In this document: positions 1-64,000 of the stretch, in pieces
Position numbering within the stretch: position 1 is the stretch's first letter
Layout of the letters: every line of letters begins with the position of its first letter
From: Mycobacteriales bacterium
GTDB lineage: Bacteria > Actinomycetota > Actinomycetes > Mycobacteriales > SCTD01
Direction: 5' to 3'
Length of the DNA: 64,000 bases
Assembly: GCA_035526225.1 (NCBI GenBank)
Contig: DATLCV010000001.1
Span: forward strand, 6,212-70,211
Made by a program: the position numbers and the translations under genes
Notes under the pieces: model-generated
What the model saw: only the letters and a program-made list of their open reading frames with translations
Told to the model about the DNA's origin: nothing
Database searches by the model: none

Positions 1-2
1 CC

Positions 3-773
3 TGCGGCAACGGTGACTGGCGCTCCCCCAGCACCTCGCCCTTCGGCCACGGCACGGCAGTCGCCGGGGTCGTCGCCGCAGGCGCGGGGAACGGCGGGAT
101 CGTCGGCGTCGCGCCCGAGGCGAAGGTCATGCCGGTGCGGATCGGCGGCGAAGGCATGTTCGACGACGGCGACATCGCCCGCGGCATCCGCTGGGCGGTC
201 ACGCACGGTGCCGACGTCATCAACCTCTCCCTCAACGCCGCAGACGACGGGACCGTGCGCGCCGCGGTCGCGTACGCCATCGCCCACGACGTGGTCGTCG
301 TGGCGGCGGCCGGGAACGGCTCGTTCCCGCTCTGCGCCCACCCCGGCGACATCGTCGGGGCGCTGTGCGTCACGGCCACCGGGCCGGACGGCCTGCCGTC
401 GGGGTACTCCTCAGCGGGGCTCGCGCCCGGGCTCGGGACGATCGCCGCACCGGGTGGCGCGGCCCCGCCCCGGGGCGTCCCGCTCGTGCTCTCGACCTGC
501 GGCGACTTCGTGATGTCCACCTGGCCCAAGCGGCACCCGGGCGGCTCCTGCACGCCGGGCCCGGGGTGGCGCGGGACCTACGGCACGTCACTCGCGGCCC
601 CGCACGTCGCGGGTGTCGCCGCGCTGCTGCGGTCTCAGGGCCGGTCCGCGGCCGAGACCGTCGAGATCCTGCTGGCCACCGCGAAGCACCCGGGCGGCGT
701 GATGGGCGGGTTCACGCCGTACTACGGCCACGGCGTCGTGGACGCCGCCGCCGCCGTGCGCGCCCCGCGCTAG
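3..773 (+). CDS. S8 subtilisin-like serine peptidase, 5' end cut by window edge
   Basis: The frame is open from the window start. His box FGHGTAVAGV and Ser box GTSLAAPHVAGVAALL are present. Stop at 771-773. Confidence 0.85.
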   Translation, partial: CGNGDWRSPSTSPFGHGTAVAGVVAAGAGNGGIVGVAPEAKVMPVRIGGEGMFDDGDIARGIRWAVTHGADVINLSLNAADDGTVRAAVAYAIAHDVVVVAAAGNGSFPLCAHPGDIVGALCVTATGPDGLPSGYSSAGLAPGLGTIAAPGGAAPPRGVPLVLSTCGDFVMSTWPKRHPGGSCTPGPGWRGTYGTSLAAPHVAGVAALLRSQGRSAAETVEILLATAKHPGGVMGGFTPYYGHGVVDAAAAVRAPR

Positions 774-870
774 GGGCCGTGACGCGCACCACAGGGACGG
801 AACCGGATTCGGGTGGCACCCTGAGGAGCAGTCCCGGGACACCTGCCTGGAGACCGCCTCGGAGGAACCG

Positions 871-1704
871 ATGTCTGACGCCCTGACGAGCCTGTACGGC
901 GGGGTCACCGCGCGCCGTGTCACCACCCGCGACCTGCAGCTGGCTAAGGACCGCGGCGAGAAGTGGGCGATGCTCACGAGCTACGACATGCTCACTGCCC
1001 AGCTCTTCGACGAGGTGGGCATCCCCGTGCTGCTCGTCGGCGACAGCGCCGGCAACATCGTCCTCGGCTACGAGAACACGGTCCCCGTGACGATGGAGGA
1101 CATGCTGCCGCTGGTGCGCGCGGTGGCCCGTTCGACGAAGCGACCTCTCGTCGTCGCCGACATGCCCTTCGGCAGCTACCAGGAGTCGCCGCAGCAGGCG
1201 CTGCACAACGCGGTGCGGTTCATGCAGGTGGGCGCCCAGGCGGTCAAGCTCGAGGGCGGCCGCCGCGTCCTCCCCCAGGCCGAGCTGCTCGTCGAGTCGG
1301 GCGTCCCGGTGATGGGCCACCTCGGGCTCACCCCGCAGAGCGTCAACACCCTCGGCGGCTACCGCGTGCAGGGCCGCGGCTCGGACGGCGACCAGCTGGT
1401 CGCCGATGCGCTCGCGCTGCAGGAGGCCGGTGCCTTCGCGATCGTGCTCGAGGTCGTCCCGGCCGACCTCGCCGAGCGGGTCTCCAAGGAGCTCGTCATC
1501 CCCACCATCGGCATCGGGGCCGGGGCGGGCACCGACGCGCAGGTCCTCGTCTGGACCGACATGGCCGGCCTCACGCCCGGTCCGGGCCCGAAGTTCCTCA
1601 AGAAGTACGCCGACCTGCGCACCGTCCTCGCCGACGCCGCCCGCGCCTACGCCGAGGAGGTCCGCTCCGGCGCGTACCCCACGGTGGACAACAGCTACAC
1701 CTGA
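871..1704 (+). CDS. panB: 3-methyl-2-oxobutanoate hydroxymethyltransferase (ketopantoate hydroxymethyltransferase)
   Basis: 277 aa with typical PanB segments: MLTSYD, LLVGDSAGNIVLGYENT, VVADMPFGSY, AVKLEGG, IGIGAG. Confidence 0.93.
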   Translation: MSDALTSLYGGVTARRVTTRDLQLAKDRGEKWAMLTSYDMLTAQLFDEVGIPVLLVGDSAGNIVLGYENTVPVTMEDMLPLVRAVARSTKRPLVVADMPFGSYQESPQQALHNAVRFMQVGAQAVKLEGGRRVLPQAELLVESGVPVMGHLGLTPQSVNTLGGYRVQGRGSDGDQLVADALALQEAGAFAIVLEVVPADLAERVSKELVIPTIGIGAGAGTDAQVLVWTDMAGLTPGPGPKFLKKYADLRTVLADAARAYAEEVRSGAYPTVDNSYT

Positions 1705-2507
1705 CGGCGCCGCGGCATGGGCGGGGGTGCGGGCCCGGCCTGGCACCGGGGGCACCAGTAGGTCAGCCGCTGCCTCGGCGGCACACCCTGCTCGGCGATG
1801 AGCACCCGTGAGCCGCAGCGGTGGCACGGCCGGCCCGCGCGCTCGAAGACCCAGTGGCTCTCGTCGTACCGGGTGTAGCCGGTGGTGCTCTGCGACCAGC
1901 GGCCCCGGTTGGCTCGCATGAGCCTCACGCACCGCGTGACGACCGCCGACAGGTCGACGTCAGAGACCCGGGTCCACGGGGTGACCCTCTCCATGAACAG
2001 CGCCTCGGCACGGTAGAGGTTGCCGACGCCCGCGAGGTGCCGCTGCTCGAGCAGCGCGGTGCCGATCTCCGCGTCCGGGTCTGCGCCCAACCGGCGCACC
2101 GCCTCCTCGAGGTCGAAGGCGTCGTCCATGACGTCGGGACCGAGGTGTCCGACCACGGTGGCCTCGTCGCGGACCAGCTCGACCACCGGCATCCGGTAGC
2201 CCACCGCCACGGCGTCGGTGTTGGCCAGCACGAGCCGCACCTGGTGATCGGGCCCGCCCTTCCAGCGCTGTCCTGGCCGGTAGACCCGCCACGTGCCGTC
2301 CATCCGGAAGTGCGTGTGCAGCGTCAGCCCCGACGACAGCCGCGTCAGCATGTGCTTGCCACGCGGCACGACCTCGAGCACGGTCTGGCCGACCAGCGAC
2401 GTCGTCGCGAGCTGCGGGACGCGGAAGTCGGTGCGCGTCAGCTCGCGCCCGGCCAGCGCCTCGTGCAGCTGCCGCGCAGACATCCAGACCGTGTCGCCCT
2501 CCGGCAC
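1695..2507 (-). CDS. nei: Fpg/Nei family DNA glycosylase (endonuclease VIII-like)
   Basis: N-terminal MPEGDTV (catalytic Pro2/Glu3) and a C-terminal zinc finger CHRCG...CPRCQ. The 3' end overlaps panB by 10 nt, convergently. Confidence 0.88.
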   Translation of the reverse strand: MPEGDTVWMSARQLHEALAGRELTRTDFRVPQLATTSLVGQTVLEVVPRGKHMLTRLSSGLTLHTHFRMDGTWRVYRPGQRWKGGPDHQVRLVLANTDAVAVGYRMPVVELVRDEATVVGHLGPDVMDDAFDLEEAVRRLGADPDAEIGTALLEQRHLAGVGNLYRAEALFMERVTPWTRVSDVDLSAVVTRCVRLMRANRGRWSQSTTGYTRYDESHWVFERAGRPCHRCGSRVLIAEQGVPPRQRLTYWCPRCQAGPAPPPMPRRRQV

Positions 2508-2566
2508 TCGCTCACCCTAGGTCGGGCGGACACTTGGATCAGCCGTGCGGCGGGTAGGAGCCCCTC

Positions 2567-2737
2567 ATGACAGAGCTGCCTGATCTCCCGGAGGACGTGG
2601 ACAGCGCGCTGGCCGAGCACGTGATAGCCATCCGCAACCGGTTCGGGCTGATCGGCCTCAAGCAGGCACAGCACCTCATCGCGCTGGAGATCACGATCTA
2701 CGAGGACAGCTACGCCAACCTCGACGACTCTCCCTAG
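2567..2737 (+). CDS. Small hypothetical protein (56 aa), not in the ORF track
   Basis: ATG at 2567 follows GGTAGGAG with good spacing. Third-position GC is high across the ORF. The TAG at 2735-2737 interlocks with the stop of the convergent gene at 2734-2736. No recognisable family. Confidence 0.4.
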   Translation: MTELPDLPEDVDSALAEHVIAIRNRFGLIGLKQAQHLIALEITIYEDSYANLDDSP

Positions 2738-3450
2738 ACCGCGAGCTGGCGCGCGAGGAGGTCGCGGGCCTCGACCAGGGACGGGCCGTACCACGTGAGG
2801 TGGCGGCCGCTCACGCACCTGCTCGGCGCCGCGAAGCACTCCGGCCCGTCGGTGGGCGAGAAGGCGTACGGCTCGTCCGGCAGGACCACCAGCCCGTACG
2901 GCGGGAGCTCGGCCAGCTCGACCTTCGGGTACCGCTCCGGGTGCCCGGCCAGGACGTTGTCGACGCCGAGCCGCGTGAGCACGTCCCCGGTGAACGTGCC
3001 CGACCCCAAGGCCATCCACGGCCGGCGCCAGATCGGGACCAGCGCGGTTCGACGTGGGCCGGTGAAGGGCTGCTCCCACGCGGCCGTGGCCTCCGCCAGC
3101 CAGCCCGGTCGTGGCAGCCCGCAGGCCGCGAGCATGCGTTCCAGCGACGCGAGGGCCTCGGGAACCGTCCGCGGGTAGGTCACCCACACCGCGAGCCCGG
3201 ACGCCCGCAGCGCATCGAGGTCCTCGAGGCGGTTCTCCTCGGCGTTGGCGAGCACGAGGTCAGGCCGCAGGCCGAGGACGGCGTCGAGCGCCGGGCTCTT
3301 CGTGCCCCGGACCCGGGTGACCTCCAGGTCCGGCGGGTGCGAGCACCAGTCGGTCGCGCCGACCAGGAGCTCGGGCGCCGTCACGGCCAGGGACTCGGTG
3401 AGCGAGGGCACGAGCGACACGACACGGCGCACCGTTGCGGGCACCGGCAC
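2734..3450 (-). CDS. BtuF/TroA-like cobalamin-binding (helical-backbone metal receptor) protein
   Basis: Segment RVVSLVPSLTESL...LVGATDWC...RPDLVLANAEEN is typical of BtuF-like binders. The long ORF (to 3660) overlaps npdG, so I chose a GTG at 3450 (3444 is also possible). No obvious signal peptide from that start. Confidence 0.7.
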   Translation of the reverse strand: MPVPATVRRVVSLVPSLTESLAVTAPELLVGATDWCSHPPDLEVTRVRGTKSPALDAVLGLRPDLVLANAEENRLEDLDALRASGLAVWVTYPRTVPEALASLERMLAACGLPRPGWLAEATAAWEQPFTGPRRTALVPIWRRPWMALGSGTFTGDVLTRLGVDNVLAGHPERYPKVELAELPPYGLVVLPDEPYAFSPTDGPECFAAPSRCVSGRHLTWYGPSLVEARDLLARQLAV

Positions 3451-6487: not shown

Positions 6488-7810
6488 CGGCGGCTCGGCC
6501 CCCTCCACCCGACCCCGTACGGCGGGCTCGGTGAGCTGGACCGTCCCGCCGGTGCCGTTGGTGTCCACGACGACGGCCTCGAACGACTCACCGACGCGGT
6601 GCTGGAGCACCCACGCCTCGGCGAGGTCCACGGCCGCCCGGTCCAGCTCGTGCGCCCGGCGGTCGGCCTGCGCCATCTCCCCCGGCAGGACGGGCAGGGC
6701 CTCGCGCGCCCACCCGGGCACGTCCACGCCGGCGCAGAGCGAGAGGCAGACCTCCCCGACGTACCGGTCGGCGAGGCGGCGCAGCGGTGCGGTGCAGTGG
6801 GCGTACGGCGCGGCGACGGCGGAGTGGGTGGTCAGGTCCGGCGGGCTCCCGTCGAAGGCGGTGTACCCCGCACCGCGGAGCAGCCGGGTGGCGAGCGTGA
6901 GCAGAGCCGCGTTGTGGGGGACCGCCGGGTCGAGGGCGCTGAGGACGTCGCCGTGCGCCGCGCCCTCGGGCCAGGCGACACCTAGTGCCAGCGCGCTGCG
7001 GCGCAGGGAGTCGACGGCCTCCTGCGGCGGGCGCGGCAGGGTCCGCAGCAGGCCGACGCTGCCCTCCAGCATGAGCGCTGCCGCCGCCATGCCGGTGAGC
7101 AGGCTGATCTCGGCGTTCCACTGCTCGGCGGGGAGCGGGGCGCGGTAGGTGAGCCGGCCGTCCGCGTCCACGACCTGCTCGGGCGTCGGCAGCTCAACGG
7201 CTCTCCGGGCCCGCGCTTGCTGCTGCCGCAGCCTGCCGACGGTCTCGAGCAGCGCCAGGTCCTCGGTGGCAGTGCCGTCGGCGAGAGCGCGCTGGACGGA
7301 CTCGTAGTCGAGCTGGCGGCGGCTGCGCACGACGGCCCGCTCGACGTGCGTGCGGGTGAGGGCGCCGTCCGCGTCGAGGGAGAGCTCCCAGACGAGCGCC
7401 GGGCGGTCCTGGTCCGGCAGCAGGCTGGCGGCGTCCTCGCTGAGCACGGTGGGGTGCAGCGGCGTACGCCGGTCAGGCGAGTACAGGGTCACGCCGCGCC
7501 GGTGCGCCTCGGCGTCGACCAGCCCACCTGGGCGCACGAACGCGGCGACGTCGGCGATGGCGTAGCGGACGAGGTAGCCCGTTGCGGTGCGGGACAGCGC
7601 CATCGCCTGGTCCAGGTCGACGGCGCCTGCCGGGTCGATCGTCAGGAACGGGACGTCGGTGAGGTCGCGCTCCGGCTTGTCGGGTTCGCGGGCCGACTGC
7701 GCGGCCTCCGCCTCGACGTCGGCTGGGAACGAGGTCGGCAGGTGCAGCTCGGCGCGCAGCGCGTCCCAGTCGTACGACGTGGGTGGCAGGCTCAGCCGCG
7801 GGCTCGGCAC
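6413..7810 (-). CDS. RNB-domain ribonuclease (RNase II/R family, short actinobacterial type)
   Basis: PFLTIDPAGAVDLDQA, YAIADVAAFV, TLYSPDRRTPLHP and APYAHCTAPLRRLADR are RNB catalytic-region motifs. Confidence 0.85.
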   Translation of the reverse strand: MPSPRLSLPPTSYDWDALRAELHLPTSFPADVEAEAAQSAREPDKPERDLTDVPFLTIDPAGAVDLDQAMALSRTATGYLVRYAIADVAAFVRPGGLVDAEAHRRGVTLYSPDRRTPLHPTVLSEDAASLLPDQDRPALVWELSLDADGALTRTHVERAVVRSRRQLDYESVQRALADGTATEDLALLETVGRLRQQQARARRAVELPTPEQVVDADGRLTYRAPLPAEQWNAEISLLTGMAAAALMLEGSVGLLRTLPRPPQEAVDSLRRSALALGVAWPEGAAHGDVLSALDPAVPHNAALLTLATRLLRGAGYTAFDGSPPDLTTHSAVAAPYAHCTAPLRRLADRYVGEVCLSLCAGVDVPGWAREALPVLPGEMAQADRRAHELDRAAVDLAEAWVLQHRVGESFEAVVVDTNGTGGTVQLTEPAVRGRVEGAEPPLGRRVEVVLAVADVRTRKVAFRLG

Positions 7811-7826
7811 TCCCCGACCCTAAGCC

Positions 7827-9050
7827 TCAGCCGTTGCCGCTCAAGAGGGCGTGCAGGGGCACCGCCGTGCTGTTCGGCGCGTACGTCGTCGTATCCGTGA
7901 TGAGGTCGTACGTCCCGTTGTTCGAGCCGTCGAACGCGAAGCCGATGATCCCCCACCTGGGGCTCTGCGCCTGCAGGTAGGCAATGGTCTCGCTGTAGAA
8001 GCTCGCACCCTCGGTGTAGTCGGTGCGGCTGCCGTCGCCGCTCGGGTAAGTCGGCCAGCCCACCTCGGTCACGAGCACCGGAGAGCTCCCGGCCAAGCCG
8101 CGCCAGCCGTCGAGGGCCGCCGTGTTGGCGTGCGCCTTCTCCGTGTGCGCGCAGTCGTGCTGCGTGTTGAGCGGGTCCGAGCACGTGTAGGGGTGCAAGG
8201 CGTAGACGAGGTTGCCCGAGGTCGCGTTGACGAGCTGGGTCGGCGGCGCGCCGGCGTAGCCGAGTCCATCAGCGAAGACGAGATGCCCGGGAGCCCGCGC
8301 GGTCACGCGGTCATAGAGCTCCTGCATGCCAACCGCCTCCCACTTCACGGCGAGGGGCTTGTTGATGCAGGCGGTGCGCTCCAGCTGCGCCTTGCGCAGC
8401 GCGACGGTGTCTGACGTCCAGACGACGTCCTTGCAGTCGGTCATGGTCTCCGCCCCCTGCGTGCCGTTGAGCCACACGCCGCCGTCGACGTAGTGCGGCT
8501 CGTTGTACAGCTCGAAGGCGACAAGGGGGTTGCCCGCGTAGTGCGCGGCAGCCGAGTCCCAGAAGGTCCTGACGTCAGGATCGGGCATCGTGTGCATGCC
8601 GAGCGCCTTGCACTTCGGCGCGATGGTGTGCAGGTCGAGCAGGGCGAGCATGCCCTGGCTGGTGATCTGCTGGATCACCGCGTCGACCTTGACGCGATAG
8701 CCGACGGGGTCGTTGGCGATGGTGGGGCACGAACCCGTCCAGTGGGGAGCGCTCACGGGAACGCGCACGACGTTCGCGTTCCAGGAACCGGTGTGGCCGC
8801 GACCGATCCAGCTGATCTCGTCTGCCGTCGGGAAGCGCTGTGCCGCTACCTGCGGGCCGTCGCGGTGGATGCCGTTGAGCACCACCGTCTGGTTGTTCAC
8901 GTCGACGATCCGGTTGCCGCTGACCGACAGCGGCAGCGCGAAGCGCGCCGACCCTGCCGCGTGGACAGCGGGCGCCGTCACACCCAGTCCCGCTGACACC
9001 AGTGCTGCCGCTGCCGTCGATGCCAGTGCTGCCTTGAGCCGTGCGCGCAT
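7827..9050 (-). CDS. Secreted glycoside hydrolase family 5 (cellulase/mannanase-like)
   Basis: Signal peptide MRARLKAALASTAAAALVSAGLGVTAPAVHA. Acid/base motif FELYNEPH and nucleophile motif LVTEVGWP. Confidence 0.8.
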   Translation of the reverse strand: MRARLKAALASTAAAALVSAGLGVTAPAVHAAGSARFALPLSVSGNRIVDVNNQTVVLNGIHRDGPQVAAQRFPTADEISWIGRGHTGSWNANVVRVPVSAPHWTGSCPTIANDPVGYRVKVDAVIQQITSQGMLALLDLHTIAPKCKALGMHTMPDPDVRTFWDSAAAHYAGNPLVAFELYNEPHYVDGGVWLNGTQGAETMTDCKDVVWTSDTVALRKAQLERTACINKPLAVKWEAVGMQELYDRVTARAPGHLVFADGLGYAGAPPTQLVNATSGNLVYALHPYTCSDPLNTQHDCAHTEKAHANTAALDGWRGLAGSSPVLVTEVGWPTYPSGDGSRTDYTEGASFYSETIAYLQAQSPRWGIIGFAFDGSNNGTYDLITDTTTYAPNSTAVPLHALLSGNG

Positions 9051-9550: not shown

Positions 9551-11402
<1,852 letters not shown>

Positions 11403-11659
11403 GTCCAGCCCACCGTAGTCGACCGTCCCTGCTCAGCGCTCCCGGCGGCGGTCGCGCGGAGGTACGGCGAACAGGATCCCGGACAACGATCGGGGGCGGG
11501 GGCGCACGGTCCTCCGAGCGTCAAGGCGCGCGAGGTCCGCGAGCAGCGACGCGCGTCGGCGCCACCAGGTCGCGTCCTGCTCGGGCCCCTGCATGGAAGG
11601 GAGTCTGAGTCGCGCCAAGCAGACCCAAACCTGGGAGGACGAGCCCCGCGGAAGGAGGC

Positions 11660-23196: not shown

Positions 23197-25194
23197 TCAG
23201 GCCGCCTTCGCGATGGAGGTGAGAGCCTCGACGGAGAGCTCCTGCAGACGCAGCACGAGCGCACCCAGGTGCTCGCCGAGCTCGGCGGCGAGCCCGAGTC
23301 GCACAGGCCCGCTCTCGCAGTCGACGACGACGAACGCGGCACTGCCGGCCAGGTAGCGCGCGGCGAGCTCGGGCGCCGGCCCGCTGGTGTGACGCCCGTC
23401 GGTGACGACCACGACCAGTGCGCGGCGGTCGGGGTCGCGCACTGCCTCGACCCGCAGCACCTCTGCGGTGCGCAGAAGCCCTGCGGTCAAAGGCGTCCGC
23501 CCCCCTGTGGGCAGAGCCCGGAGGCGCTGCGCAGCGGCCTCGACGCTGCTCGTCGGAGGGAGGTCGAGCGACGCGCCGTCACCACGGAAGGTCACCAGAG
23601 CCACCTTGTCACGGCGCTGGTAGGCGTCGGTCAGCAGTGAGAGCACAGCGCCCTTCACCGCGCTCATCCGCTGCCGGGCGGCCATCGAACCGCTGGCGTC
23701 GACGAGGAAGAGCACGAGGTTGCCCTCACGGCCCTCCCGCACCGCCTCGCGCAGGTCGTCGCGGCGCAGCCGCAGCGCGGCGCTGTCCCGCCCGCGGGCG
23801 AGCTGGTGCGGCGCGGCAGCGCGCAGGGTGGCCGTGAGGTGCAGGTGGGCCAGCTGGCCCCGCGGGGTGCGTGACCCGGTGAGCCGGCCGCTGCCTCCCT
23901 CGGCCCGGGACCGCCGACCCGCGGCGCCACCGCGCTGGTTGACGCCCGGCACCGACAGCTGCACGGGGCGGAACGTCTCCCCCACCCCCTGCGACGTGTC
24001 AGGCCGTGAGCCGGTCCCAACTCGCTCAGGACCTGACAGGCCGGGGGCGCCCCCCTGCTCCCGCGAGCTGTCAGGCTCTGCGCGAGTCCCAGCCTCCTCA
24101 GGACCTGACAACTCGGAAGAGGAGGGTGGGGGAGGGCCGCCGCCGCCCGGGGGCTCGGGGTCGTCGTCGGGCGCGGCGTCGGGACCGTCGGTCACCGAGT
24201 CCAGGGCCTCCTCGAGGCGGTCCTCGTCCAGGCCAGGCGCCTCGAAGGGCGTTCGCCGGCGCCGGTGCGGCAGCGCGAGGCGCGCGGCGGTGCGCACGTC
24301 CTCGGTCGTGACGTCGTCACGACCGGCCCAGGCGGCCAGCGCCATGGCCGCCTTCGCTGTGACCAGGTCGGCGCGCAGGCCGTCCACGCCAAAGGCTGCG
24401 CACACGGTCGTGATCTCACGCAGGGCCCGGTCACCCAGCACGACGTGCGGCAACCGCTCACGCGCGGCGGCGATCTGCTTCGCGAGGTCGGCGTCCGCTG
24501 CCGCCCACTCGGCCGCGAAGGCCTCGGGCGCGGCCTCGTAGGCCAGCCTGCGTCGTACGACGTCTGCTCGCTCCGACGGGTCCCGCGTCGCTGTCACCTC
24601 GACCGTGAGGCCGAACCGGTCGAGCAGCTGCGGACGCAGCTCGCCCTCCTCGGGGTTCATCGTGCCCACGAGCAGGAAGCGCGCGGCGTGCCGCACCGAG
24701 ACGCCCTCGCGCTCGACGTACGACGTGCCGAGGGCGGCGGCGTCGAGCAGCAGGTCCACGAGGTGGTCGTGCAGCAAGTTGACCTCGTCGACGTAGAGCA
24801 CACCGCGGTGCGCGGCTGCGAGCAGCCCGGGCTCGTACGCCGAGACACCCGTCGTGAGGGCCCGCTCGAGGTCGAGGGACCCGACCAGGCGGTCCTCCGA
24901 GGCACCCACGGGCAGCTCGACGAGCCGCGCGGGACGGGTGTCGGCCGCGCCGTGCTGCGCGACGTCGGGGCAGGACGGATCAGGCGAGGCGGGGTCACAG
25001 GAGAACCGGCAGCTCTCCAGCACGTCGACCCCGGGCAGCAGTGCTGCAAGAGCGCGCACGACGGTCGACTTGGCGGTGCCCTTCTCGCCTCGCACGAGCA
25101 CCCCGCCGACGGCGGGCGAGACCGCGTTCACCACGAGGGCGAGGCGCAGGTCGTCGAGGCCGACGACGGCGCTGAAGGGGTACCCGCTGCTCAC
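23197..25194 (-). CDS. ChlI/ChlD-type AAA+ - VWA fusion, putative ATPase partner of CobN cobaltochelatase
   Basis: N-terminal AAA+ (RGEKGTAKST, Walker B LYVDEVNLL), a Pro/Gly-rich linker, and a C-terminal VWA domain with MIDAS VDASGSM. Sits in the cob operon. Confidence 0.88.
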   Translation of the reverse strand: MSSGYPFSAVVGLDDLRLALVVNAVSPAVGGVLVRGEKGTAKSTVVRALAALLPGVDVLESCRFSCDPASPDPSCPDVAQHGAADTRPARLVELPVGASEDRLVGSLDLERALTTGVSAYEPGLLAAAHRGVLYVDEVNLLHDHLVDLLLDAAALGTSYVEREGVSVRHAARFLLVGTMNPEEGELRPQLLDRFGLTVEVTATRDPSERADVVRRRLAYEAAPEAFAAEWAAADADLAKQIAAARERLPHVVLGDRALREITTVCAAFGVDGLRADLVTAKAAMALAAWAGRDDVTTEDVRTAARLALPHRRRRTPFEAPGLDEDRLEEALDSVTDGPDAAPDDDPEPPGGGGPPPPSSSELSGPEEAGTRAEPDSSREQGGAPGLSGPERVGTGSRPDTSQGVGETFRPVQLSVPGVNQRGGAAGRRSRAEGGSGRLTGSRTPRGQLAHLHLTATLRAAAPHQLARGRDSAALRLRRDDLREAVREGREGNLVLFLVDASGSMAARQRMSAVKGAVLSLLTDAYQRRDKVALVTFRGDGASLDLPPTSSVEAAAQRLRALPTGGRTPLTAGLLRTAEVLRVEAVRDPDRRALVVVVTDGRHTSGPAPELAARYLAGSAAFVVVDCESGPVRLGLAAELGEHLGALVLRLQELSVEALTSIAKAA
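23987..24110. repeat. In-frame double-hairpin element, copy 1 (four alternating TGTCAGG/CCTGACA heptamers)
   Basis: TGTCAGG 23997-24003, CCTGACA 24032-24038, TGTCAGG 24069-24075, CCTGACA 24104-24110, preceded by the left flank CCCCCTGCGA. The geometry matches the copy at 41285-41408. Confidence 0.75.
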
Positions 25195-30281: not shown

Positions 30282-31712
30282 TCACGAGGGGCGGCGGCGG
30301 CCCGCCAGAGCGGCGAGCAGCTGGCCGCGAGACCGGACGCCGAGCTTGTCGTAGACCGAGGTGAGGTGCCCCTCGACCGTCTTCACGCTCAGGAACAGCT
30401 GGCCCGCGATCTCCCGGTTGCTCAGGCCCGATCCGACCAGCTCGACGACGGCGGCCTCTTGCTGCGTGAGGCTCGCCGGACCCGCTGAGGGCGTCGCGAC
30501 CGCGGCGCTCCGGTCCCCGGCAGCGCGCAGCTCTGCAACCGCTCGGTCGGCCCAGGACATCGCTCCCGTGCTCTCGAAGCGCTGAAGGGCTGCGCGCAGC
30601 GCTTGGCGCGCCGCCTCCCGCTGCTTGCGCCGCCGGAGCAGCTCTCCCTCTGCGAGGTAGGTGCGCCCCTGCTCGAACAAGTTCGTCCACTGCGCGTGCC
30701 ACCGGTGTGCTTCCGCGAAGGCCTCCAGGTCGTCGTGGGCCACGCCCTTCGCGCGTAGGGCAGGTGCAGCGATGCGCGGCTGCCCGGTGGCGACGGCGGC
30801 GTCGACGAACTCGGCGGCGAGCGCGGCGGCCTGCGCCTTGCGGCCCGTGCGGGCGTACGCCTCGACGAGCGACGGCACGAAGGGCCGGGCACCGCAGGCC
30901 TGCGCGAGCGGTGACAGGGCGACCTCGGACAGCTTGGTCTCGAAGGCCTCGGCTGCCACGTCGAGCTGCCCCAGCCCCAGGGCGAGCATGCCCGCCGCGA
31001 ACCCGCCCGGAGCGGTCATCGGCAGCTCCGCGCCGACCTCCTTGGCCGTCGCGAGCACACCGCGGCAGCGCTCGACGTCCCCGAGCAGGGCCGTCACCCA
31101 CGCGAGGATGCCGAGCGCGTCGAGGAAGGGCAGGCCCTTGTCGACACTGGTCGCAGCGACGGCCTGCTCGGCGCACAGCAGTGCCTCACGCAGCCGTCCG
31201 CTGTGGATCTCGGCCATGCAGGCGAGGTCGAGGGCGTCGAGCAGGTCCACCCGGCTCCCCGACGCCCGCGCGTGCACGACTGCCTCGTAGGCCGCCTCCC
31301 GCGCGGGCTTCAGCGCGCCGGTGCGGAGCAGCGCGTCAGCCCGTTCGCAGAGGACAGATGCGTCCAGGGGTGCCTCGACGCGCCCCGCGGACTGCCACGC
31401 GGCCCGGGCCTCGTCGTACCGGCCGGCCCACAGCAGGGCGTCCCCGAGGCGCGTGACCGCCCGCACCTCCACTGCCCCGCCGGTGCCCCGAGCCAGCTCC
31501 ACGGCGTCGCGCGCGATCTCCAGGGAGCGCTGCGGGCCGTAGACGAGCAGGGCGAGCGAGACGCACTCGACCAGCAGCGTCGCGGCACCGGCGGGTGACG
31601 GGTGCTCGCGGGCGGCGGTGACGAGGTAGGCCACGGCCTCGGCCTTGTGCGCCGCCGCCGCGAGCGCCCGGCCGTGCGCGAGCTGCTCCTCGACCGACAG
31701 CGCCCCCCTCAC
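30282..31712 (-). CDS. LuxR-family regulator with TPR-like helical region and no N-terminal ATPase
   Basis: C-terminal HTH LTQQEAAVVELVGSGLSNREIAGQLFLSVKTVEGHLTSVYDKLGV. The upstream part is Ala/Leu-rich helical repeats. Begins 32 nt downstream of cobN. Confidence 0.8.
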   Translation of the reverse strand: MRGALSVEEQLAHGRALAAAAHKAEAVAYLVTAAREHPSPAGAATLLVECVSLALLVYGPQRSLEIARDAVELARGTGGAVEVRAVTRLGDALLWAGRYDEARAAWQSAGRVEAPLDASVLCERADALLRTGALKPAREAAYEAVVHARASGSRVDLLDALDLACMAEIHSGRLREALLCAEQAVAATSVDKGLPFLDALGILAWVTALLGDVERCRGVLATAKEVGAELPMTAPGGFAAGMLALGLGQLDVAAEAFETKLSEVALSPLAQACGARPFVPSLVEAYARTGRKAQAAALAAEFVDAAVATGQPRIAAPALRAKGVAHDDLEAFAEAHRWHAQWTNLFEQGRTYLAEGELLRRRKQREAARQALRAALQRFESTGAMSWADRAVAELRAAGDRSAAVATPSAGPASLTQQEAAVVELVGSGLSNREIAGQLFLSVKTVEGHLTSVYDKLGVRSRGQLLAALAGRRRPS

Positions 31713-37581: not shown

Positions 37582-37597
37582 GCGACCCGCCCCCCCC

Positions 37598-37651
37598 GTG
37601 ATCATGGGGGAGCTGGACACCCCAGGGGGTGTTCGGCTCCCCCACGATCAT
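37598..37651. repeat. 54-bp palindromic repeat, copy A
   Basis: GTGATCATGGGGGAGCTGGACACCCCAGGGGGTGTTCGGCTCCCCCACGATCAT forms an imperfect ~26-bp-arm hairpin. It is 50/54 identical to copy B. It lies between the MFS stop and the DUF559 stop. Confidence 0.9.
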
Positions 37652-38595
37652 CAGGCAGCACGGCGCAGCAGCCGGGCCGCCACCGCCTCGATCTCGGCGA
37701 CGACCCCCCTGGCGTCACGGAGCACCCTCGACGCCGGGTACCTCAGCACGGTCCACCCAGCTGCCTCGAGCCTGGTGTGCCGCTCGACGTCTGCCACCCA
37801 CCGCTCTGCCGACAGGTGCCAGCGCGCGCCGTCGGTCTCGACGAGCAACCGGAGCTCCTCGATCACCACGTCACCACGCGCCAACCAGGTGCCGTCGTCG
37901 TAGACGTCCGCGTTGAGCCGGTACGCCGGTAACGACGCCCCGCGGAGGGCGCGGGCGAGCCCAGCCTCAGGCGCCGAGCGCGCTCCCTCGGCCACCTCGT
38001 CCAGCGCGCGTCGCACATGCCCACTCCCGCGCTGTGGGGCAGCGCCCAGCTCCGCCACCAGCTTCTCGACCGTCGTCCGCCGTCGCTGCACGGCGTTGCT
38101 GACCGTCGCCCGCACGTCATCGAGCGAGGTGAGCCCTAGGCAGGCGTCGATGACGCAACGCTCTACGGGCAGCGTCGGCAGCAATCGCCGGCTGCTCAGG
38201 GAGCGGGTGGTTCGGTGCAGCACGAGACGCCCGCCACCTGCCAGGAACTCCACTGCCGCCAGCTGCCGGGAGTGGGGCAGGGCCACGTGCACTTCCCGGC
38301 CTGGCTCCGCCAGACCCCACGCGGCCAGCCCGGACCACGAGGTGAGCGCGGCTCGCTCGCCGGCCAGCAGCACTCCCGCCCACGCCTTCTGCTCCCAGGT
38401 GGGGGAACCCGTGGCCGCGAGGTACACCGCCGGGAGCAGGCGCTGCCACGAGCGGGCGAGCCGGTGCTCGATCGCGGCCCGGTGCCATCCGTGGTCCAGT
38501 GCCTGGGCGCGGGTCACCACGCCCTCCTGCTCGGCCAGGAGCTGCTGCCAGAGCGCATCGTCGATCACCATTCCCCGAGGAGAGCCCCTGGCCAC
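37651..38595 (-). CDS. DUF559/Vsr-like endonuclease-domain protein with an N-terminal AbiEi-like wHTH
   Basis: The C-terminus LLVETDGARWH...RLEAAGWTVLRY is typical of DUF559 (restriction-endonuclease-like). The N-terminus GVVTRAQAL resembles AbiEi_4. The start is uncertain (GTG 38595 or ATG 38571). Confidence 0.75.
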   Translation of the reverse strand: MARGSPRGMVIDDALWQQLLAEQEGVVTRAQALDHGWHRAAIEHRLARSWQRLLPAVYLAATGSPTWEQKAWAGVLLAGERAALTSWSGLAAWGLAEPGREVHVALPHSRQLAAVEFLAGGGRLVLHRTTRSLSSRRLLPTLPVERCVIDACLGLTSLDDVRATVSNAVQRRRTTVEKLVAELGAAPQRGSGHVRRALDEVAEGARSAPEAGLARALRGASLPAYRLNADVYDDGTWLARGDVVIEELRLLVETDGARWHLSAERWVADVERHTRLEAAGWTVLRYPASRVLRDARGVVAEIEAVAARLLRRAA

Positions 38596-38638
38596 GGATC
38601 ACGCCGCGGGCATCGGGCGACCTGTGGGTCGGCTGCTC

Positions 38639-38692
38639 GTGATCATGGGGGAGCCGGACACCCCAGGGGGTGTTCGGCTCCACCATGATCAC
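38639..38692. repeat. 54-bp palindromic repeat, copy B
   Basis: GTGATCATGGGGGAGCCGGACACCCCAGGGGGTGTTCGGCTCCACCATGATCAC. Same orientation as copy A. Its right end contains the cobQ stop codon. Confidence 0.9.
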
Positions 38693-40173
38693 GGGAGGGG
38701 GGCGCCAGGGGGGATGAAGGGCAGGCCGTCGGCGACACCCTCCGCCAGCAGCCGGGCGACCGCCTCGGTGTCGAGGTGGTCGGCCACAAGGTCGCCCAGG
38801 ACGTCGAGCCGGGCCTGCCGCACCTCCTCGAAGGCGCGCGTGCCTGGCTCCCACTCCCGGCCGGTCACCTTGGCGACCTCCGCCAGCAGCGCCCGGCGGA
38901 AGCCGTCGCTCTCCAGGGCCCCGTGCCAGACGGTCCCGAAGACCGGACCCACCTGGACGCCGTCGAGGAACGGCTCCCCCGCGGAGGCGGTGATCAGCCC
39001 GTGGTGCACCTCGTACGCCGTGTCGACCCGCTCGCTGCGCCACTCCCCCACCGGACGCGCGAGCACCTTCTCCCGAGCGAACACCGTGCGCACCGGCAGC
39101 AGGCCGAGACCGTCCACCGCACCTGCACCTGACTCGACGTCGTCCTCGATGCGCGCGCCGAGCATCTGGTAGCCGCCGCAGATCCCGAGAAGAGGCCCCT
39201 CCCGTCGTGCGAGGGCGTCGGCGAGGCCGCGGGAACGCAACCACGCGAGGTCGGCGACGGTCTGCCGGGTGCCGGGCAGCACCACGAGGTCGGCGTCGGC
39301 CAGCTCCTCGGGCGTCGTGACGAACCGCACCAGCACCCCCGGCTCGGAGCGCAGCGCGTCGACGTCGGTCCAGTTGGACAGCCGCGGCAGGCGGATGACG
39401 CTGACACGGAGCACATCACGCCCGACCGCAGGCAGGGGTGCCACCGGCGCGGCCAGTCCCAGCGAGTCCTCCACGTCCAGCTCCAGCCCGTCGGCCCAGG
39501 GCAGCACGCCGTACGTCGGACGGCCGGTGAGCCGGGTGAGCATCGCGAGGCCGGGCTCGAGCAGCGCCGGGTCGCCGCGGAACTTGTTCACCACGAACCC
39601 TGCGACCAGGGCCTGGTCCTCCCGCGACAGCAGCGCGAGGGTGCCGAACAGGCCGGCGAAGACGCCACCGGGGTTGATGTCCCCGACCACGAGCACGGGC
39701 AGGTCCGCGGCCCGGGCGAGGCCCATGTTCGCGATGTCGGTGGCGCGCAGGTTGATCTCCGCGGGCGAGCCGGCACCCTCGCAGATGACGACGTCGAAGC
39801 GGCTGCGCAGCTCCGCGAGCGAGGCGAGGGCGACCTCGAGCAGGGCCGCCTTGTGCTCGCGGTACGACGTGGCGCTGACCTCGGCGTACGGCCGGCCGAG
39901 CACCACGACCTGTGAGGTGCGGTCGCTGCCGGGCTTGAGGAGCACCGGGTTCATCAGGGCCTCTGGCTCGATCCCGGCCGCGGCCGCCTGCATCGCCTGG
40001 GCCCGCCCGATCTCCGCGCCGTCGGCGGTCACGGCGGAGTTCAGCGACATGTTCTGCGCCTTGAAGGGCGCGACCTTCACGCCCTGCCGGGCCAGCCACC
40101 GGCACAGCCCCGCGGTCAGCACCGACTTGCCGGCGTCGGACGTGGTGCCCGCGACGAGCAGCGCCCCTCTCAC
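38689..40173 (-). CDS. cobQ: Cobyric acid synthase
   Basis: [26 protein letters not shown], and GATase [10 protein letters not shown]. The GTG at 40173 overlaps the cobD stop (GTGA). The 653-aa ORF-track extension was rejected. Confidence 0.92.
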
Positions 40174-41120
40174 CGCCGCGAACGCCGTACGACCAGGCCG
40201 CGAACGCCGACCGCGAGCACACCTGCGGCGAGCCCGACCCCCGTGGAGAGCCGGGCGGCACGCGGGATGTCCGCCACGTCGGGGGCCGGTCCGTTGCCGA
40301 GCAGCGGCCGGTCCTCGACGCGACCGGCGTAGGAGAGCCGGCCGCCGAGCGTCCGGCCGAGCGCCCCCGCGAACGCCGCCTCGACGGGGCCGGCGTTGGG
40401 CGAGGGGTGCTTGTACCCGTCCCGCACCCACACCCGACGGGCCTCCTCGGGGCGCCCGCCGACGAGCGGCGCGAGCACGGTGGCCAGCCCTGCCGTGATC
40501 CGCGCGGGGGCGAGGTTCGCGGCGTCGTCGAGCCGGGCCGACGCCCAGCCGAACCGCGCGTACCGGGGGCTGCGGTGCCCGACCATCGCGTCGAGGGTGT
40601 TCACCGCGCGGTACCCGACGAGGCCGGGCACACCCGCTACCGCACCCCACAGCAGCGGGCCGACGACGGCGTCTGAGGTGTTCTCCGCCACCGACTCGAC
40701 GGTCGCGCGGGCGAGGTCAGCGGGTCCGAGCCCGGCTGGGTCCCGGCCGCACAGGTGCGGCAGGCGCGCGCGAGCGCCCTCGACGTCACCGTCACGCAGC
40801 AGCGCGTGCATCGCCAGCGCCTCGCGGCGCAGCGACGTGCCGCCCACGACCGACCAGGTGGCCGCGGCCGTGAGCGCCACGCGCACGACGGGGTGCTGAG
40901 CCCGGCGGGCGACCACCGTCCCGAGCAGGGCAGTCCCCCCGCCGAGCAGCGCGGTGTACGCCGCGCCGGCCGCCCGGGAGTCGCGGTGCAGCACCCGCTC
41001 GGTGCGAGCGGCGACGGTGCCGAACGCGGCAACCGGGTGGCCCCGCCGGGGATCTCCCAGCAGGGCGTCGAGGCCGAGCCCGCCGGCGATCCCGGCCGCG
41101 CTGGGCCAGCTACTCCGCAA
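40170..41120 (-). CDS. cobD: Adenosylcobinamide-phosphate synthase (CobD/CbiB)
   Basis: [32 protein letters not shown], and several TM helices. The only plausible start is a TTG at 41120, overlapping the upstream gene by 11 nt. Confidence 0.85.
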
Positions 41121-41940
41121 CCGGCGCCTCCGGCGCACGGGGGGCCTCAGGTCCAGGTGCGGGAGCCGCCGGAGCCTCGGGGGCCGGGGCCGGGGCCGGG
41201 GCCGCGGGGGCCGGAGCCTCGGGGGCCGGGGCCGGGGCCTCGGGGGCCGGAGCCGGGGCCTCGGGGGCCGGAGCCGCAGGCGCCCCCTGCGAGTTGTCAG
41301 GCTGTGGGGCGGTCGGGGCGCTCTCAGCACCTGACACGTCCGGGGAGGACGTGGTGGCTCCAGAGTTGTCAGGCTGTGGGGCGGTCGGGGCGCTCTGGGC
41401 ACCTGACAGGTCGGGGGCAGCGGCGGGGGCCGACGGAGTCTCGAGGGCCTCTCCGGCAGCGGCAGCCTCGGGACGGGGGCCGCGCTCACCACGCTCACCT
41501 GGGCCGCGCTCACCACGCTCACCTGGGCCGCGCTCCCCACGCTCACCTGGGCCGCGCTCACCCGGGCCGCGCTCCCCGGGGGCGCGCGGCCCCTCGGGGC
41601 GCCCGTCACGACCGCGGCCGCGGTTGCGGGTCTTCGGCGGACGCGGGGTCCGGTCACCCGCGAGGTCGCGCAGCGGGACGGTCATGTCCATCGCGCCGGC
41701 GAGGGCGTACTCCTGCACGAGCAGCTCGATCGCGGGCACGTCCTCGGCAGAGGCGGTCGGCAGCTTGCCCTCCGCCATGGCCCGCAGCTCGGAGAGCCGG
41801 CCCAGTCGGCGCTGGGGGGTGTCCGTCGGGTGGGTGAGCAGGACCGCGTGCGCGACGCAGGCCGCCGTACCGGACACGGACGTGACGGCCTCGCGCACCA
41901 GGGCGAGGTCGGCGAGGCAGGGCGCGCAGTAGGTGGTCAT
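41110..41940 (-). CDS. Hypothetical protein: ~100-aa Cys-containing N-domain plus a ~175-aa low-complexity repeat tail
   Basis: The N-terminus MTTYCAPC...ACVAH has CxxC...CxxH spacing. The tail carries (PGERG/PGERGERG)n, two 24-aa repeats (..LSG..APTAPQPDNS..) and (APEAPAP)n. It sits between the VOC gene and cobD on the same strand. Confidence 0.6.
   Translation of the reverse strand: MTTYCAPCLADLALVREAVTSVSGTAACVAHAVLLTHPTDTPQRRLGRLSELRAMAEGKLPTASAEDVPAIELLVQEYALAGAMDMTVPLRDLAGDRTPRPPKTRNRGRGRDGRPEGPRAPGERGPGERGPGERGERGPGERGERGPGERGERGPRPEAAAAGEALETPSAPAAAPDLSGAQSAPTAPQPDNSGATTSSPDVSGAESAPTAPQPDNSQGAPAAPAPEAPAPAPEAPAPAPEAPAPAAPAPAPAPEAPAAPAPGPEAPRAPEAPVAE
41113..41285 (-). repeat. Degenerate tandem DNA repeat encoding (A/P)PEAPAPAP units
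   Basis: Reiterated GGGGCCTCGGGGGCCGGAGCC-like units on the plus strand. Confidence 0.8.
41285..41408. repeat. In-frame double-hairpin element, copy 2 (four alternating TGTCAGG/CCTGACA heptamers; internal 72-nt direct repeat)
   Basis: TGTCAGG 41295-41301, CCTGACA 41330-41336, TGTCAGG 41367-41373, CCTGACA 41402-41408, with the left flank CCCCCTGCGA. The two 50-nt halves (41291-41340 and 41363-41412) are nearly identical. Confidence 0.8.
41476..41583 (-). repeat. Tandem 24-nt/15-nt repeat encoding PGERGERG / PGERG units
   Basis: GGCCGCGCTCACCACGCTCACCTG occurs three times, followed by shorter units. Confidence 0.8.
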
Positions 41941-63769: not shown

Positions 63770-64000
63770 AGTTGGTGGGACGAGCCGGGCTGTAAGCCGG
63801 GTTCTGTACCTGCGAGCAGGTGACGGTCATCCATCTGGGACCACTGTTGCCAGTGGCCTCGTGCGGTCTACCCGCAGGCTCGGGCGGGCCGCCCTCGAAC
63901 GCCTGCGCAGGAGCGCTCTCGCCGAAGCGAAGGAGCTCCCTCTTGACCTTGCTCCGGGTGGGGTTTGCCGAGCCGGCCGGGTCACCCCGGCCGCTGGTGG
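63770..64000 (-). ncRNA. rnpB: RNase P RNA (bacterial type A), 3' portion; the 5' part lies beyond the window
   Basis: The minus strand reads ...GCAAACCCCACCCGGAGCAAGGUCAAGAGGGA...GGGUAGACCGCACGAGGCCACUGGCAACAGUGGUCCCAGAUGGAUGACCGUCACC...GGUACAGAACCCGGCUUACAGCCCGG. This matches the conserved P4/P15-P18 region and the ACAGAACCCGGCUUA 3' core of M1-type RNAs. Confidence 0.85.

Follow-up and report, generated by a model that had tools for sequence, protein, structure and literature searches.

In-frame hairpin doublets in two genes of a Mycobacteriales bacterium: probable members of a dispersed palindrome family of soil Actinobacteria

Introduction

Gene-end hairpins that are conserved in sequence have been a long-standing puzzle in high-G+C Actinobacteria. 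The TRIT ('Tuberculosis Rho-independent terminator') elements of Mycobacterium tuberculosis, 147 palindromic, bidirectional and sequence-conserved hairpins in a narrow position at stop codons, were reported as restricted to Mycobacterium, and a protein factor was suggested to recognise their motif (Gardner et al. 2011, PMC3152330). The terminator role proposed for them in 2011 is unsupported by 3'-end mapping, as a Term-seq study found only 2-4% overlap of TRIT predictions with mapped 3' ends (bioRxiv 10.1101/2022.06.01.494293). Here we describe a hairpin element that occurs as two in-frame copies, A and B, in 64 kb of contig DATLCV010000001.1 (the whole stretch is termed here the window), which has a G+C content of 72.8% and comes from a metagenome-assembled genome (MAG) labelled 'Mycobacteriales bacterium'. 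Each copy is very probably made of two tandem units of a DNA palindrome that is dispersed, as a family, among high-G+C soil Actinobacteria. Taken together, the family members match the TRIT position at stop codons, unlike the two window copies, which lie inside a putative cobaltochelatase gene (host gene 1) and a gene for a hypothetical protein (host gene 2).

The AT-rich Rickettsia palindromic elements (RPEs) come from obligate intracellular alpha-proteobacteria and have many copies within genes. These palindromic repeats of ~100-150 bp lie in frame in unrelated genes, where the encoded peptide is tolerated (also PMC3733652). Repetitive extragenic palindromes (REPs) of Proteobacteria form, together with a RAYT transposase, the units called REPtrons (Nunvar 2010, PMC2817692; Di Nocera 2013, PMC3733652). 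In-frame palindromic repeats (RPEs, and REPs in genes), stop-codon hairpins (TRIT) and cognate genes bracketed by repeats (REPtrons) are known in other phyla. What appears new, against Rfam 15 and the searchable literature, is the hairpin family itself and its breadth in soil Actinobacteria, the DNA-level evidence, the long-lived in-gene doublets with complementary arms, and the association with a Vsr-like nuclease in place of a RAYT. The findings describe a second family of TRIT build, widespread in soil Actinobacteria outside Mycobacterium and behaving as a DNA-level palindrome, and they indicate that such a hairpin can persist in frame within genes of an essential pathway while its arms co-evolve.

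Two hairpin doublets in the window

The heptamers TGTCAGG and CCTGACA alternate at 23997, 24032, 24069 and 24104 in copy A and at 41295, 41330, 41367 and 41402 in copy B; the positions and the 35/37/35-nt spacing given in an earlier note on this DNA are exact for both. For the pattern TGTCAGG-N20-40-CCTGACA, the window has four matches where 0.01 would be expected. The two copies align without gaps and are identical at 81 of 124 positions (65%), in agreement with the two-thirds previously estimated by hand, and outside the heptamers identity is still 53/96 (55%), compared with a background of 30 +/- 5% and reached by about one in 20,000 random pairs. As the same note held, both hosts lie on one strand, which is the minus strand (Table 1). 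It had further described each hairpin as a 7-bp stem with a 28-nt loop: the stems in fact reach 11-12 bp, and in the family the supposed loop is a 12-bp stem capped by a 4-nt loop.

Each copy consists of two units. In copy A, the first unit, A1, is CGAGTTGTCAGG-N28-CCTGACAGCTCG, with the in-frame peptide ELSGPEEAGTRAEPDSS, and A2 is CGGCCTGTCAGG-N28-CCTGACACGTCG, with the peptide GLSGPERVGTGSRPDTS, followed by the flank CAGGGGG (QG). In copy B, unit B1 encodes DLSGAQSAPTAPQPDNS and B2 encodes DVSGAESAPTAPQPDNS, after which comes the flank TCGCAGGGGG, as in copy A. All eight arms retain TGTCAGG/CCTGACA while their outer 4-5 nt have partly diverged, and each of the four units has a core of exactly 28 nt, with its inner pairing partly decayed (in A2, eight Watson-Crick pairs and one wobble can still be read from the sequence). 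The loops of B1 and B2 are identical at 26 of 28 positions, which is consistent with recent duplication or homogenisation. Because copies A and B share both a 72-nt period and the flank TCGCAGGGGG, which is also present on one metagenome copy (L043), the comparison suggests that doublet and flank were copied as one block. Although each doublet (~134 nt) has its minimum free energy when folded into a single long hairpin, in which heptamer 1 pairs with 4 and heptamer 2 with 3, the basic unit is the single hairpin, since lone units are found elsewhere.

Table 1. Coordinates of the hairpin units, their host genes and the associated nuclease gene, with in-gene copies from metagenome loci (R1, covariance model described in the text; wHTH, winged helix-turn-helix)
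Feature	Position	Strand	Description
Host gene 1	23197..25194	-	ChlI/ChlD-type putative cobaltochelatase, 665 aa; Pfam
Host gene 2	41110..41940	-	hypothetical protein, 276 aa, directly upstream of CobD/CbiB
Copy A (doublet)	23988-24122		in minus-strand host gene 1
Copy B (doublet)	41283-41420		in minus-strand host gene 2
Hairpin unit A1	24057..24122	-	R1 42.5 bits, E 2.5e-9; first on cobaltochelatase coding strand
Hairpin unit A2	23988..24050	-	R1 35 bits, E 2.4e-7
Hairpin unit B1	41355..41420	-	R1 25.6 bits, E 9e-5; disordered tail of 276-aa open reading frame
Hairpin unit B2	41283..41348	-	R1 30.2 bits, E 5e-6
Nuclease gene	37651..38595	-	wHTH (AbiEi-like) + DUF559/Vsr-like nuclease, 314 aa; tblastn E 1e-7, PF04480 35.5 bits
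Second-type hairpin, TGATCATGGGGGAGCTGGACACCCC/GGGGTGTTCGGCTCCCCCACGATCA	37598..37652	.	stop codon of DUF559 gene
Second-type hairpin	38636..38695	.	upstream of DUF559 gene; at least 22 paired bases
In-gene doublet, L032 and L122 (two related genomes)			between Molybdopterin and Molydop_binding domains of oxidoreductase
In-gene single unit, L074			between CobQ/CobB-type GATase_3 and aminotransferase domains
In-gene insertion, L071			within Helicase_C of Lhr-type helicase

A dispersed hairpin family at gene ends

The family unit is a hairpin of ~52 nt whose 11-12-bp base (CGAGTTGTCAGG/CCTGACAACTCG) is conserved in sequence, whose 12-bp top varies but stays paired, and which ends in a 4-nt loop. 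An exact scan of metagenome contigs for GAGTTGTCAGG-N24-32-CCTGACAACTC found perfect arms in at least 120 contigs; the same scan of viral contigs returned no match. Among the matches listed, 109 of 116 non-redundant copies have a core of 28 nt, and this core is built as a 12-bp stem and a 4-nt loop (TATA, CCTG, CATG, CATA and others) with a sequence that varies from copy to copy. The further copies for which the earlier note had proposed a search therefore exist in number, and most of them are extragenic. In 185k species genomes, which do not include the source MAG, the exact pattern TGTCAGGC-N9-GTC-N14-ACCTGACA has four matches, which is about chance level; two of these, in Nocardioidaceae and Microlunatus MAGs, are real and gave the extended arm (CCGAGTTGTCAGG-N28-CCTGACAACTCGG, extragenic and directly after a stop codon). 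Known carriers are Frankiales and 'Mycobacteriales' MAGs, Nocardioidaceae, Microlunatus and many soil contigs. The hairpin copy of the Microlunatus MAG (L001) is preceded at ~35 nt by TCGAACttgtGTTCGA (1255-1275), a palindrome resembling a LexA/SOS box.

Pairing covaries across the family. Aligned over 101 copies, the hairpin has 85.8% paired cells, compared with 30-42% when the partners are slid, and double-sided changes number 382 against 164 +/- 11 in shuffled alignments (0/500), with all 12 inner pairs covarying. A covariance model, R1, built from the metagenome copies alone with the window units left out, recovers four units only from the 64 kb (25.6-42.5 bits, E 9e-5 to 2.5e-9; family members score 25-78 bits), with no further full-length significant match in that scan; a sub-threshold match at 31114-31177 was rejected as an element. 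At gathering and E-value thresholds, Rfam 15 holds no matching family and gave spurious miRNA-type hairpin matches only, and literature searches with the sequence strings of the family arm and of an M. tuberculosis arm returned only unrelated primers.

The home of the family is the end of genes: among the extragenic ones of the 116 copies, the distance from stop codon to element clusters between -2 and +12 nt, often on both sides (i.e., between convergent genes), and in 15 copies the TGA stop overlaps the element and is completed by its first two bases. The genes next to family copies include those for a methyltransferase, a glyoxalase, a GNAT protein, an epoxide hydrolase, a histidine ammonia-lyase and an ABC transporter, upp, and others. 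The flanks read ...CC-GAGTT...AACTC-GG... and are G/C-rich. Units occur singly or as doublets with a period of 60-72 nt; R1 detected ~20 further unforced copies in 563 kb of metagenome loci (~1 extra per 28 kb), often 0.5-2 kb from the first copy or as doublets of 60-66 nt.

Copies inside genes

Among the matches listed, 4 of the 116 metagenome copies (~3-4%) are truly intragenic; one more (L009), flagged as a fifth by a coding-signal screen, actually lies upstream of a gene. Together with the two window genes, these represent five independent hosts, all with the element in frame 0, encoding E-L-S-G-x10-P-D-N-S; copies A and B share this frame as (L/V)SG...PDxS. Of the three frames, 0 (GAG TTG TCA GG.) and 1 are open and 2 is closed by a TGA in CC-TGA-CA, and because the arms are palindromic the same frames are open or closed on both strands. 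Four of the five hosts carry the element at a domain junction or in a disordered tail, the fifth inside Helicase_C.

The product of host gene 1, which is 100% identical to P0001 ('putative cobaltochelatase [Mycobacteriales bacterium]'), comprises an AAA+ module, AAA_lid_2 (residues 260-329), a linker and a VWA domain (494-600), and copy A corresponds to residues ~361-402 of the linker between AAA_lid_2 and VWA. PF26791 'AAPxQ' appears between these two domains in precomputed Pfam lists (P0001-P0120 and the gene tables of L125-L130); in the window cobaltochelatase it gave no Pfam-A match at E <= 0.01. The protein of host gene 2, without a Pfam match, is conserved in its N-domain of ~100 aa and at its C-terminal end (...EAPVAE), and has a Pro/Ala/Glu-rich tail that is hypervariable. 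Its residues ~100-165 (41440-41660) form a (P)GERG/ERGPGERG run coded by GC-rich short tandem repeats, and a long overlapping open reading frame (ORF), 40170..41657, over-extends CobD/CbiB into this repeat region.

The L074 host is a single ORF (1-3180) in which CbiA+GATase_3 is joined to Aminotran_1_2 via the in-frame unit ELSGAHVAPTTSPPDNS; here a hairpin that normally stands 3' of a stop codon may have fused two adjacent cob genes. The hairpins create lineage-specific linker inserts, may fuse neighbouring ORFs, can provide stop codons and are liable to mislead gene callers and motif searches.

History of the in-gene copies

In both host genes the block is a lineage-specific presence, as the orthologue alignment suggested by the earlier note brings out. 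Of 119 further ChlD orthologues in the list, only 7 match the strict LSG..PDxS motif. One or two units of ~24 codons sit at the same linker site in the closest clade, and the linkers of more distant orthologues are unrelated, with no recognisable units. At the DNA level, the second unit in eight orthologous ChlD loci ends 5-7 codons before a conserved TF(K/R)PV motif. The arms are TGTCAGG/CCTGACA in the window, L125 and L126, TGTCAGA/TCTGACA in L127 and L130, and TGTCAGC/GCTGACA in L128 and L150, and these complementary changes (GG/CC, GA/TC, GC/GC) alter the encoded residues from Gly to Glu, Asp or Ala and from Pro to Ser or Ala. Over 15 in-gene units of this type (type 1), TGTCAG/CTGACA is invariant and the adjoining pair is G.C (7), C.G (4) or A.U (3); 74.7% of cells are paired, against 28-41% with slid partners, double-sided changes number 34 against 19.8 +/- 3.1, and the outer 12 bp are 89% paired. 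The doublet at the ChlD linker site is old and persistent and evolves under base-pairing constraint. The covariation that the earlier note had asked about holds among orthologous in-gene copies as well as across the family. A genome-wide shift of the arm consensus is an unlikely source of the complementary changes, as two arm types seemingly occur on one contig: P0027 (ChlD, other arm type) and P0139 (gene 2, TCAGA/TCTGA units) appear, judged by matching length and source, to share a contig of 64,966 nt.

Two ChlD linkers carry a different arm at the same site. In L129 (gene 6659-8665) it is CGTCCTCA-N28-TGAGGACG, read as TSSEV..VRTQ, and in L149 (gene 849-2816) it is GCGTCCGC/GCGGACGC, in the form TGCGTCCGC-N28/30-GCGGACGCA, read as ASAEV..ERTQ. 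This second arm type has a 28-30-nt core and a 72-nt doublet, with its 3' arm in another register and frame, and may be a diverged type 1 or an independent insertion. The homologues of host gene 2 (n=84) have 0, 1 or 2 units at variable spacing, and its orthologues show both LSG..PD and LSE..SD pairs; the L128 orthologue has no unit in the part that is available.

A nuclease gene bracketed by hairpins

Hairpins of a second type (TGATCATGGGGGAGC.GGACACCCC plus complement, 52-60 nt), the sole two in the window with at least 22 paired bases, bracket a gene for a winged helix-turn-helix (wHTH) and DUF559/Vsr-like nuclease protein, and their terminal TGATCA provides TGA stop codons both for the nuclease gene and for cobQ (38689-38691). 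Among the genes that lie between 14 hairpin pairs in metagenome loci, 5 of 14 encode one ~300-aa wHTH+DUF559 family, which adjoins hairpins in 11 loci by tblastn; shared neighbours reduce these to ~4 independent contexts. The window protein is 27.5% identical (E 1e-7) to the metagenome family next to GAGTTGTCAGG hairpins, and its PF04480 score stands against a cut-off of 20.6 bits, with a weak AbiEi_4 match besides; the metagenome homologues fall below Pfam thresholds, yet an E-x-D-G...H motif is invariant in the alignment. In the AlphaFold2 model of the window protein (pLDDT 95), Foldseek matched the N-terminal part to AbiEi and Rv2827c (6y8q and 1zel among the matches) and the C-terminal ~95 residues to the catalytic domain of I-Bth0305I (3r3p, TM 0.74), Vsr (1vsr) and a DUF559 structure (3hrl). 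The family is large and diverse, numbering 1,612 representatives at E <= 1e-10. No RAYT (Y1 transposase) was recognised when the translated ORFs between the 14 pairs were inspected; of the bracketed genes, the DUF559-type protein alone was scanned against Pfam and NCBIfam. A literature search found no report of an association between hairpins and a wHTH-Vsr-like nuclease.

The nuclease gene shows a presence/absence polymorphism. In a Frankiales MAG (GCA_025966135.1; L128, 3045-3110), a solo hairpin, GATCATGG/CCATGATC, with the same outer arm but without the nuclease gene, occupies a cobQ/MFS junction orthologous to window positions 37582-38688. Compared by sequence, the two loci could reflect either gain of the gene at a hairpin or its loss through recombination between the flanking hairpins.

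DUF559-type genes have, between their start codon and the hairpin upstream, a conserved box, (T)CCACAGGT, at ~38615-38625 in the window and also in L100, L109, L015, L099, L087, L022, L058 and L047, even where the hairpin type differs; its variants are CCACAGCT, CCACAACT and CCACAAAT. The CCACA(GGT) box was rejected as part of the solo element, being found in 7 of 223 flanks against ~5 expected, and is a feature of the nuclease gene's 5' region, where it may be a promoter or operator.

Comparison with known systems

TRIT is the closest in build. Like the family, it is a palindromic, bidirectional hairpin of ~55-65 nt, strongly conserved in sequence and structure, with a conserved base, a variable top and a short loop, lies at or overlaps stop codons, often between convergent genes, has ~1 copy per 30 kb and shares the outermost base CGAG...CTCG. 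We took M. tuberculosis hairpins from DNA around IS6110 and equated them with TRIT by the description in the TRIT paper, not by its alignment. The hairpin CGAGCAGACGCAAAATCGCCC...GGGCGATTTTGCGTCTGCTCG occurs at two unrelated loci between convergent gene ends (L142, 2067-2124; L143, 2658-2723), in each as CGAGCAGACGCAAAATCGCCC followed by 6-8 bp of variable sequence, a loop of 2-4 nt and the complementary strand of the stem. At a third M. tuberculosis locus (L131, 1314-1376) there is a different hairpin, CCGAGACTGACGTTTTGCAG-N19-CTGCAAAACGTCAATCTCGG, in which the base CGAG...CTCG is shared. Mycolicibacterium loci reached via insertion sequence copies were rich in such sequences and held no hairpin of this kind. 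TRIT differs from the family in its arm (CGAGCAGACGCAAAATCGCCC versus CGAGTTGTCAGG; R1 gives 18-22 bits on the two M. tuberculosis hairpins), in its restriction to Mycobacterium as opposed to a broad range of soil Actinobacteria, and in that neither in-frame genic copies nor a nuclease partner have been reported for it. The family therefore looks like a TRIT-like sibling, not TRIT itself, in so far as the M. tuberculosis hairpins correspond to TRIT by description.

REPs resemble the family as short dispersed palindromes 3' of genes, next to unidirectional or convergent ORFs, with dimers common, termini that can provide a stop codon and some copies in frame within genes, and REPtrons do so in having a cognate gene bracketed by repeat copies, with clades that differ in their repeat. 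However, the family has a longer hairpin (23-bp stem) with a variable core of fixed length (28 nt), lacks a GTAG or CGTC tag at its end in the flanks inspected, and brackets a gene for a wHTH and Vsr-like PD-(D/E)xK nuclease, with no RAYT (Y1 HUH) seen. RPEs are like the window element in that both are in-frame palindromes in unrelated genes (five hosts here), and the window element is absent from most orthologues of ChlD and of gene 2. They are unlike the family in that genic copies are here the exception (~3-4%) and the home is after stop codons; homology is implausible from composition (~70% G+C) and host phylum. The nuclease protein combines an EDxHD/Vsr-like homing endonuclease fold (I-Bth0305I) with a wHTH of AbiEi/Rv2827c type, but its loci have no intron or intein context, unlike those of homing endonucleases, and in the loci seen no adjacent AbiEii toxin partner, unlike AbiEi systems.

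Proposed mechanism and alternatives

The constraint on the element is at the nucleotide level and not purely at that of the peptide. In 34 confident window ORFs, the shares among synonymous codons are 4.3% for TCA (Ser), 4.3% for CCT (Pro), 11% for GGT (Gly) and 2.2% for TTG (Leu), which bears out the previous claim that the arm codons TCA, GGT and CCT are rare; taken together, the 12 arm codons have a joint probability of 1.8e-15. The host gene's peak in G+C at third codon positions (0.88) drops to 0.67-0.74 inside the elements, flattening the codon-position profile. A short linear motif or structural repeat, (L/V)SG-x10-PDxS, selected in the protein with the palindrome incidental to it, would account for the identical frame of all in-gene copies and for the recurrence of the peptide in two cob-region proteins and their orthologues. 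It is nonetheless extremely improbable, as the majority of the family is extragenic, the x10 segment shows no peptide conservation, the number of units varies from 0 to 2 among orthologues, arm-end residues change (G to E/D/A, P to S/A) so that pairing survives, and the hosts (a cobaltochelatase, a hypothetical protein, a molybdoenzyme, a helicase and a CobQ-aminotransferase) are unrelated. The rare arm codons, the flat codon-position G+C, the extragenic home, the in-gene frame and the complementary arm changes together exclude a purely peptide motif. A palindromic operator bound by a regulator of cobalamin synthesis and common to the two cluster genes is just as hard to credit: both window copies lie in a cob region, the L074 copy joins CobQ-like and aminotransferase parts, and the second hairpin type abuts cobQ, but cob genes occupy so much of the window that two matches there are unsurprising, and the inner 28 nt are free in sequence yet self-complementary, which a dimeric operator does not require. 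The other possibility raised in the earlier note, that two cob genes share a regulatory site or an mRNA structure of their own, is unsupported, given the many unrelated genes that the family adjoins and the lack of RNA-strand asymmetry.

That asymmetry bears on whether the element works in the transcript at all, for instance as a TRIT-like terminator, a 3'-end stabiliser or a processing site, with the in-gene doublets modulating cob-operon expression through ribosome pausing between the AAA+ and VWA modules or through segmental mRNA stability. Its position after stop codons and between convergent genes is typical of terminators and 3' stabilisers, TRIT was proposed as a terminator with a dsRNA-binding factor (PMC3152330), the structure has long persisted within the ChlD gene, and the RNA folds are stable (-16 to -36 kcal/mol per unit, with doublet z-scores of -2 to -4). 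We regard a function in RNA as improbable even so. Mismatches were counted in 43 extragenic copies oriented by a single upstream gene and in the in-gene units read by their coding strand, and the G.U:A.C ratios were 27:29 and 20:29; since a structure selected in the transcript should tolerate G.U but not A.C, this symmetry argues for a DNA-level palindrome. Furthermore, no T/U tract follows the hairpin, TRIT predictions and mapped M. tuberculosis 3' ends scarcely coincide (the 2-4% given above; bioRxiv 10.1101/2022.06.01.494293), a terminator within an essential-domain linker would truncate the protein, and copy B folds far better antisense (-73.8 versus -48.2 kcal/mol). The element thus probably acts as DNA, in the form of a hairpin or cruciform, and not in mRNA. 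All the proposed tests that were run support the view of the earlier note that this is a nucleotide-level palindrome lying in frame in unrelated genes, after the manner of RPEs.

On this evidence, the dispersed DNA palindrome has its home just after stop codons, often between convergent genes, where it frequently supplies the TGA. We propose that, with one frame open on both strands and encoding the small, polar and flexible peptide E-L-S-G-x10-P-D-N-S, copies that landed or were captured in that frame within disordered linkers are tolerated for that reason, as happened between the AAA+ and VWA parts of the cobaltochelatase and in the tail encoded by the gene preceding cobD; the in-gene copies are likely to be tolerated passengers and not functional parts of their host proteins. 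Palindromy may be kept by selection for a DNA structure that a protein recognises, or by template switching or gene conversion within the palindrome, two processes that are not separable here. The family would be spread or maintained by a partner protein, for which the bracketed wHTH and Vsr-like (DUF559) nuclease is the best and a concrete candidate; as judged from gene arrangement, this partnership is possible, though we hold it only tentatively.

A bolder version of the proposal, somewhat doubtful at present, is that the hairpins are the repeat part of a new selfish element, in which a nuclease gene is bracketed by its own hairpin in the manner of a REPtron, with a PD-(D/E)xK nuclease in place of RAYT. 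Solo hairpins would then have dispersed to gene ends, perhaps left behind by recombination between flanking copies, and nuclease clades may be matched to hairpin types (GAGTTGTCAGG, GATCATGG..., possibly TRIT). If so, even old in-gene copies would owe their lasting palindromic form to the nuclease, or to the repair that it provokes, and TRIT would be accounted for as a member of this class of repeats and not as a terminator.

Several observations weigh against the account of a dispersed palindrome with tolerated in-gene copies and a nuclease partner. Copies per genome are only extrapolated from the sampled loci (~1 extra per 28 kb), and the case for mobility comes from presence/absence between diverged genomes. 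The window holds neither an extragenic GAGTTGTCAGG copy nor a cognate gene of that type, so its in-gene copies may be relics; their inner 12 bp have decayed, with 61% paired against 76% in extragenic copies and a baseline of ~35%. Conversely, long persistence with complementary changes may mean that the in-gene hairpins have a function. As for the nuclease, the evidence for its association comes from the window and ~4 independent contexts, genes of other kinds likewise lie between two hairpins, and the presence of a hairpin was what the loci had been selected for.

Other features of the window

No cobalamin riboswitch reached the gathering score in the cob-rich window. A TPP riboswitch scores 54.6 bits at 11298-11409 on the minus strand, and the 3' part of a class A RNase P RNA occupies 63777-64000, also on the minus strand, where it is cut by the window end.

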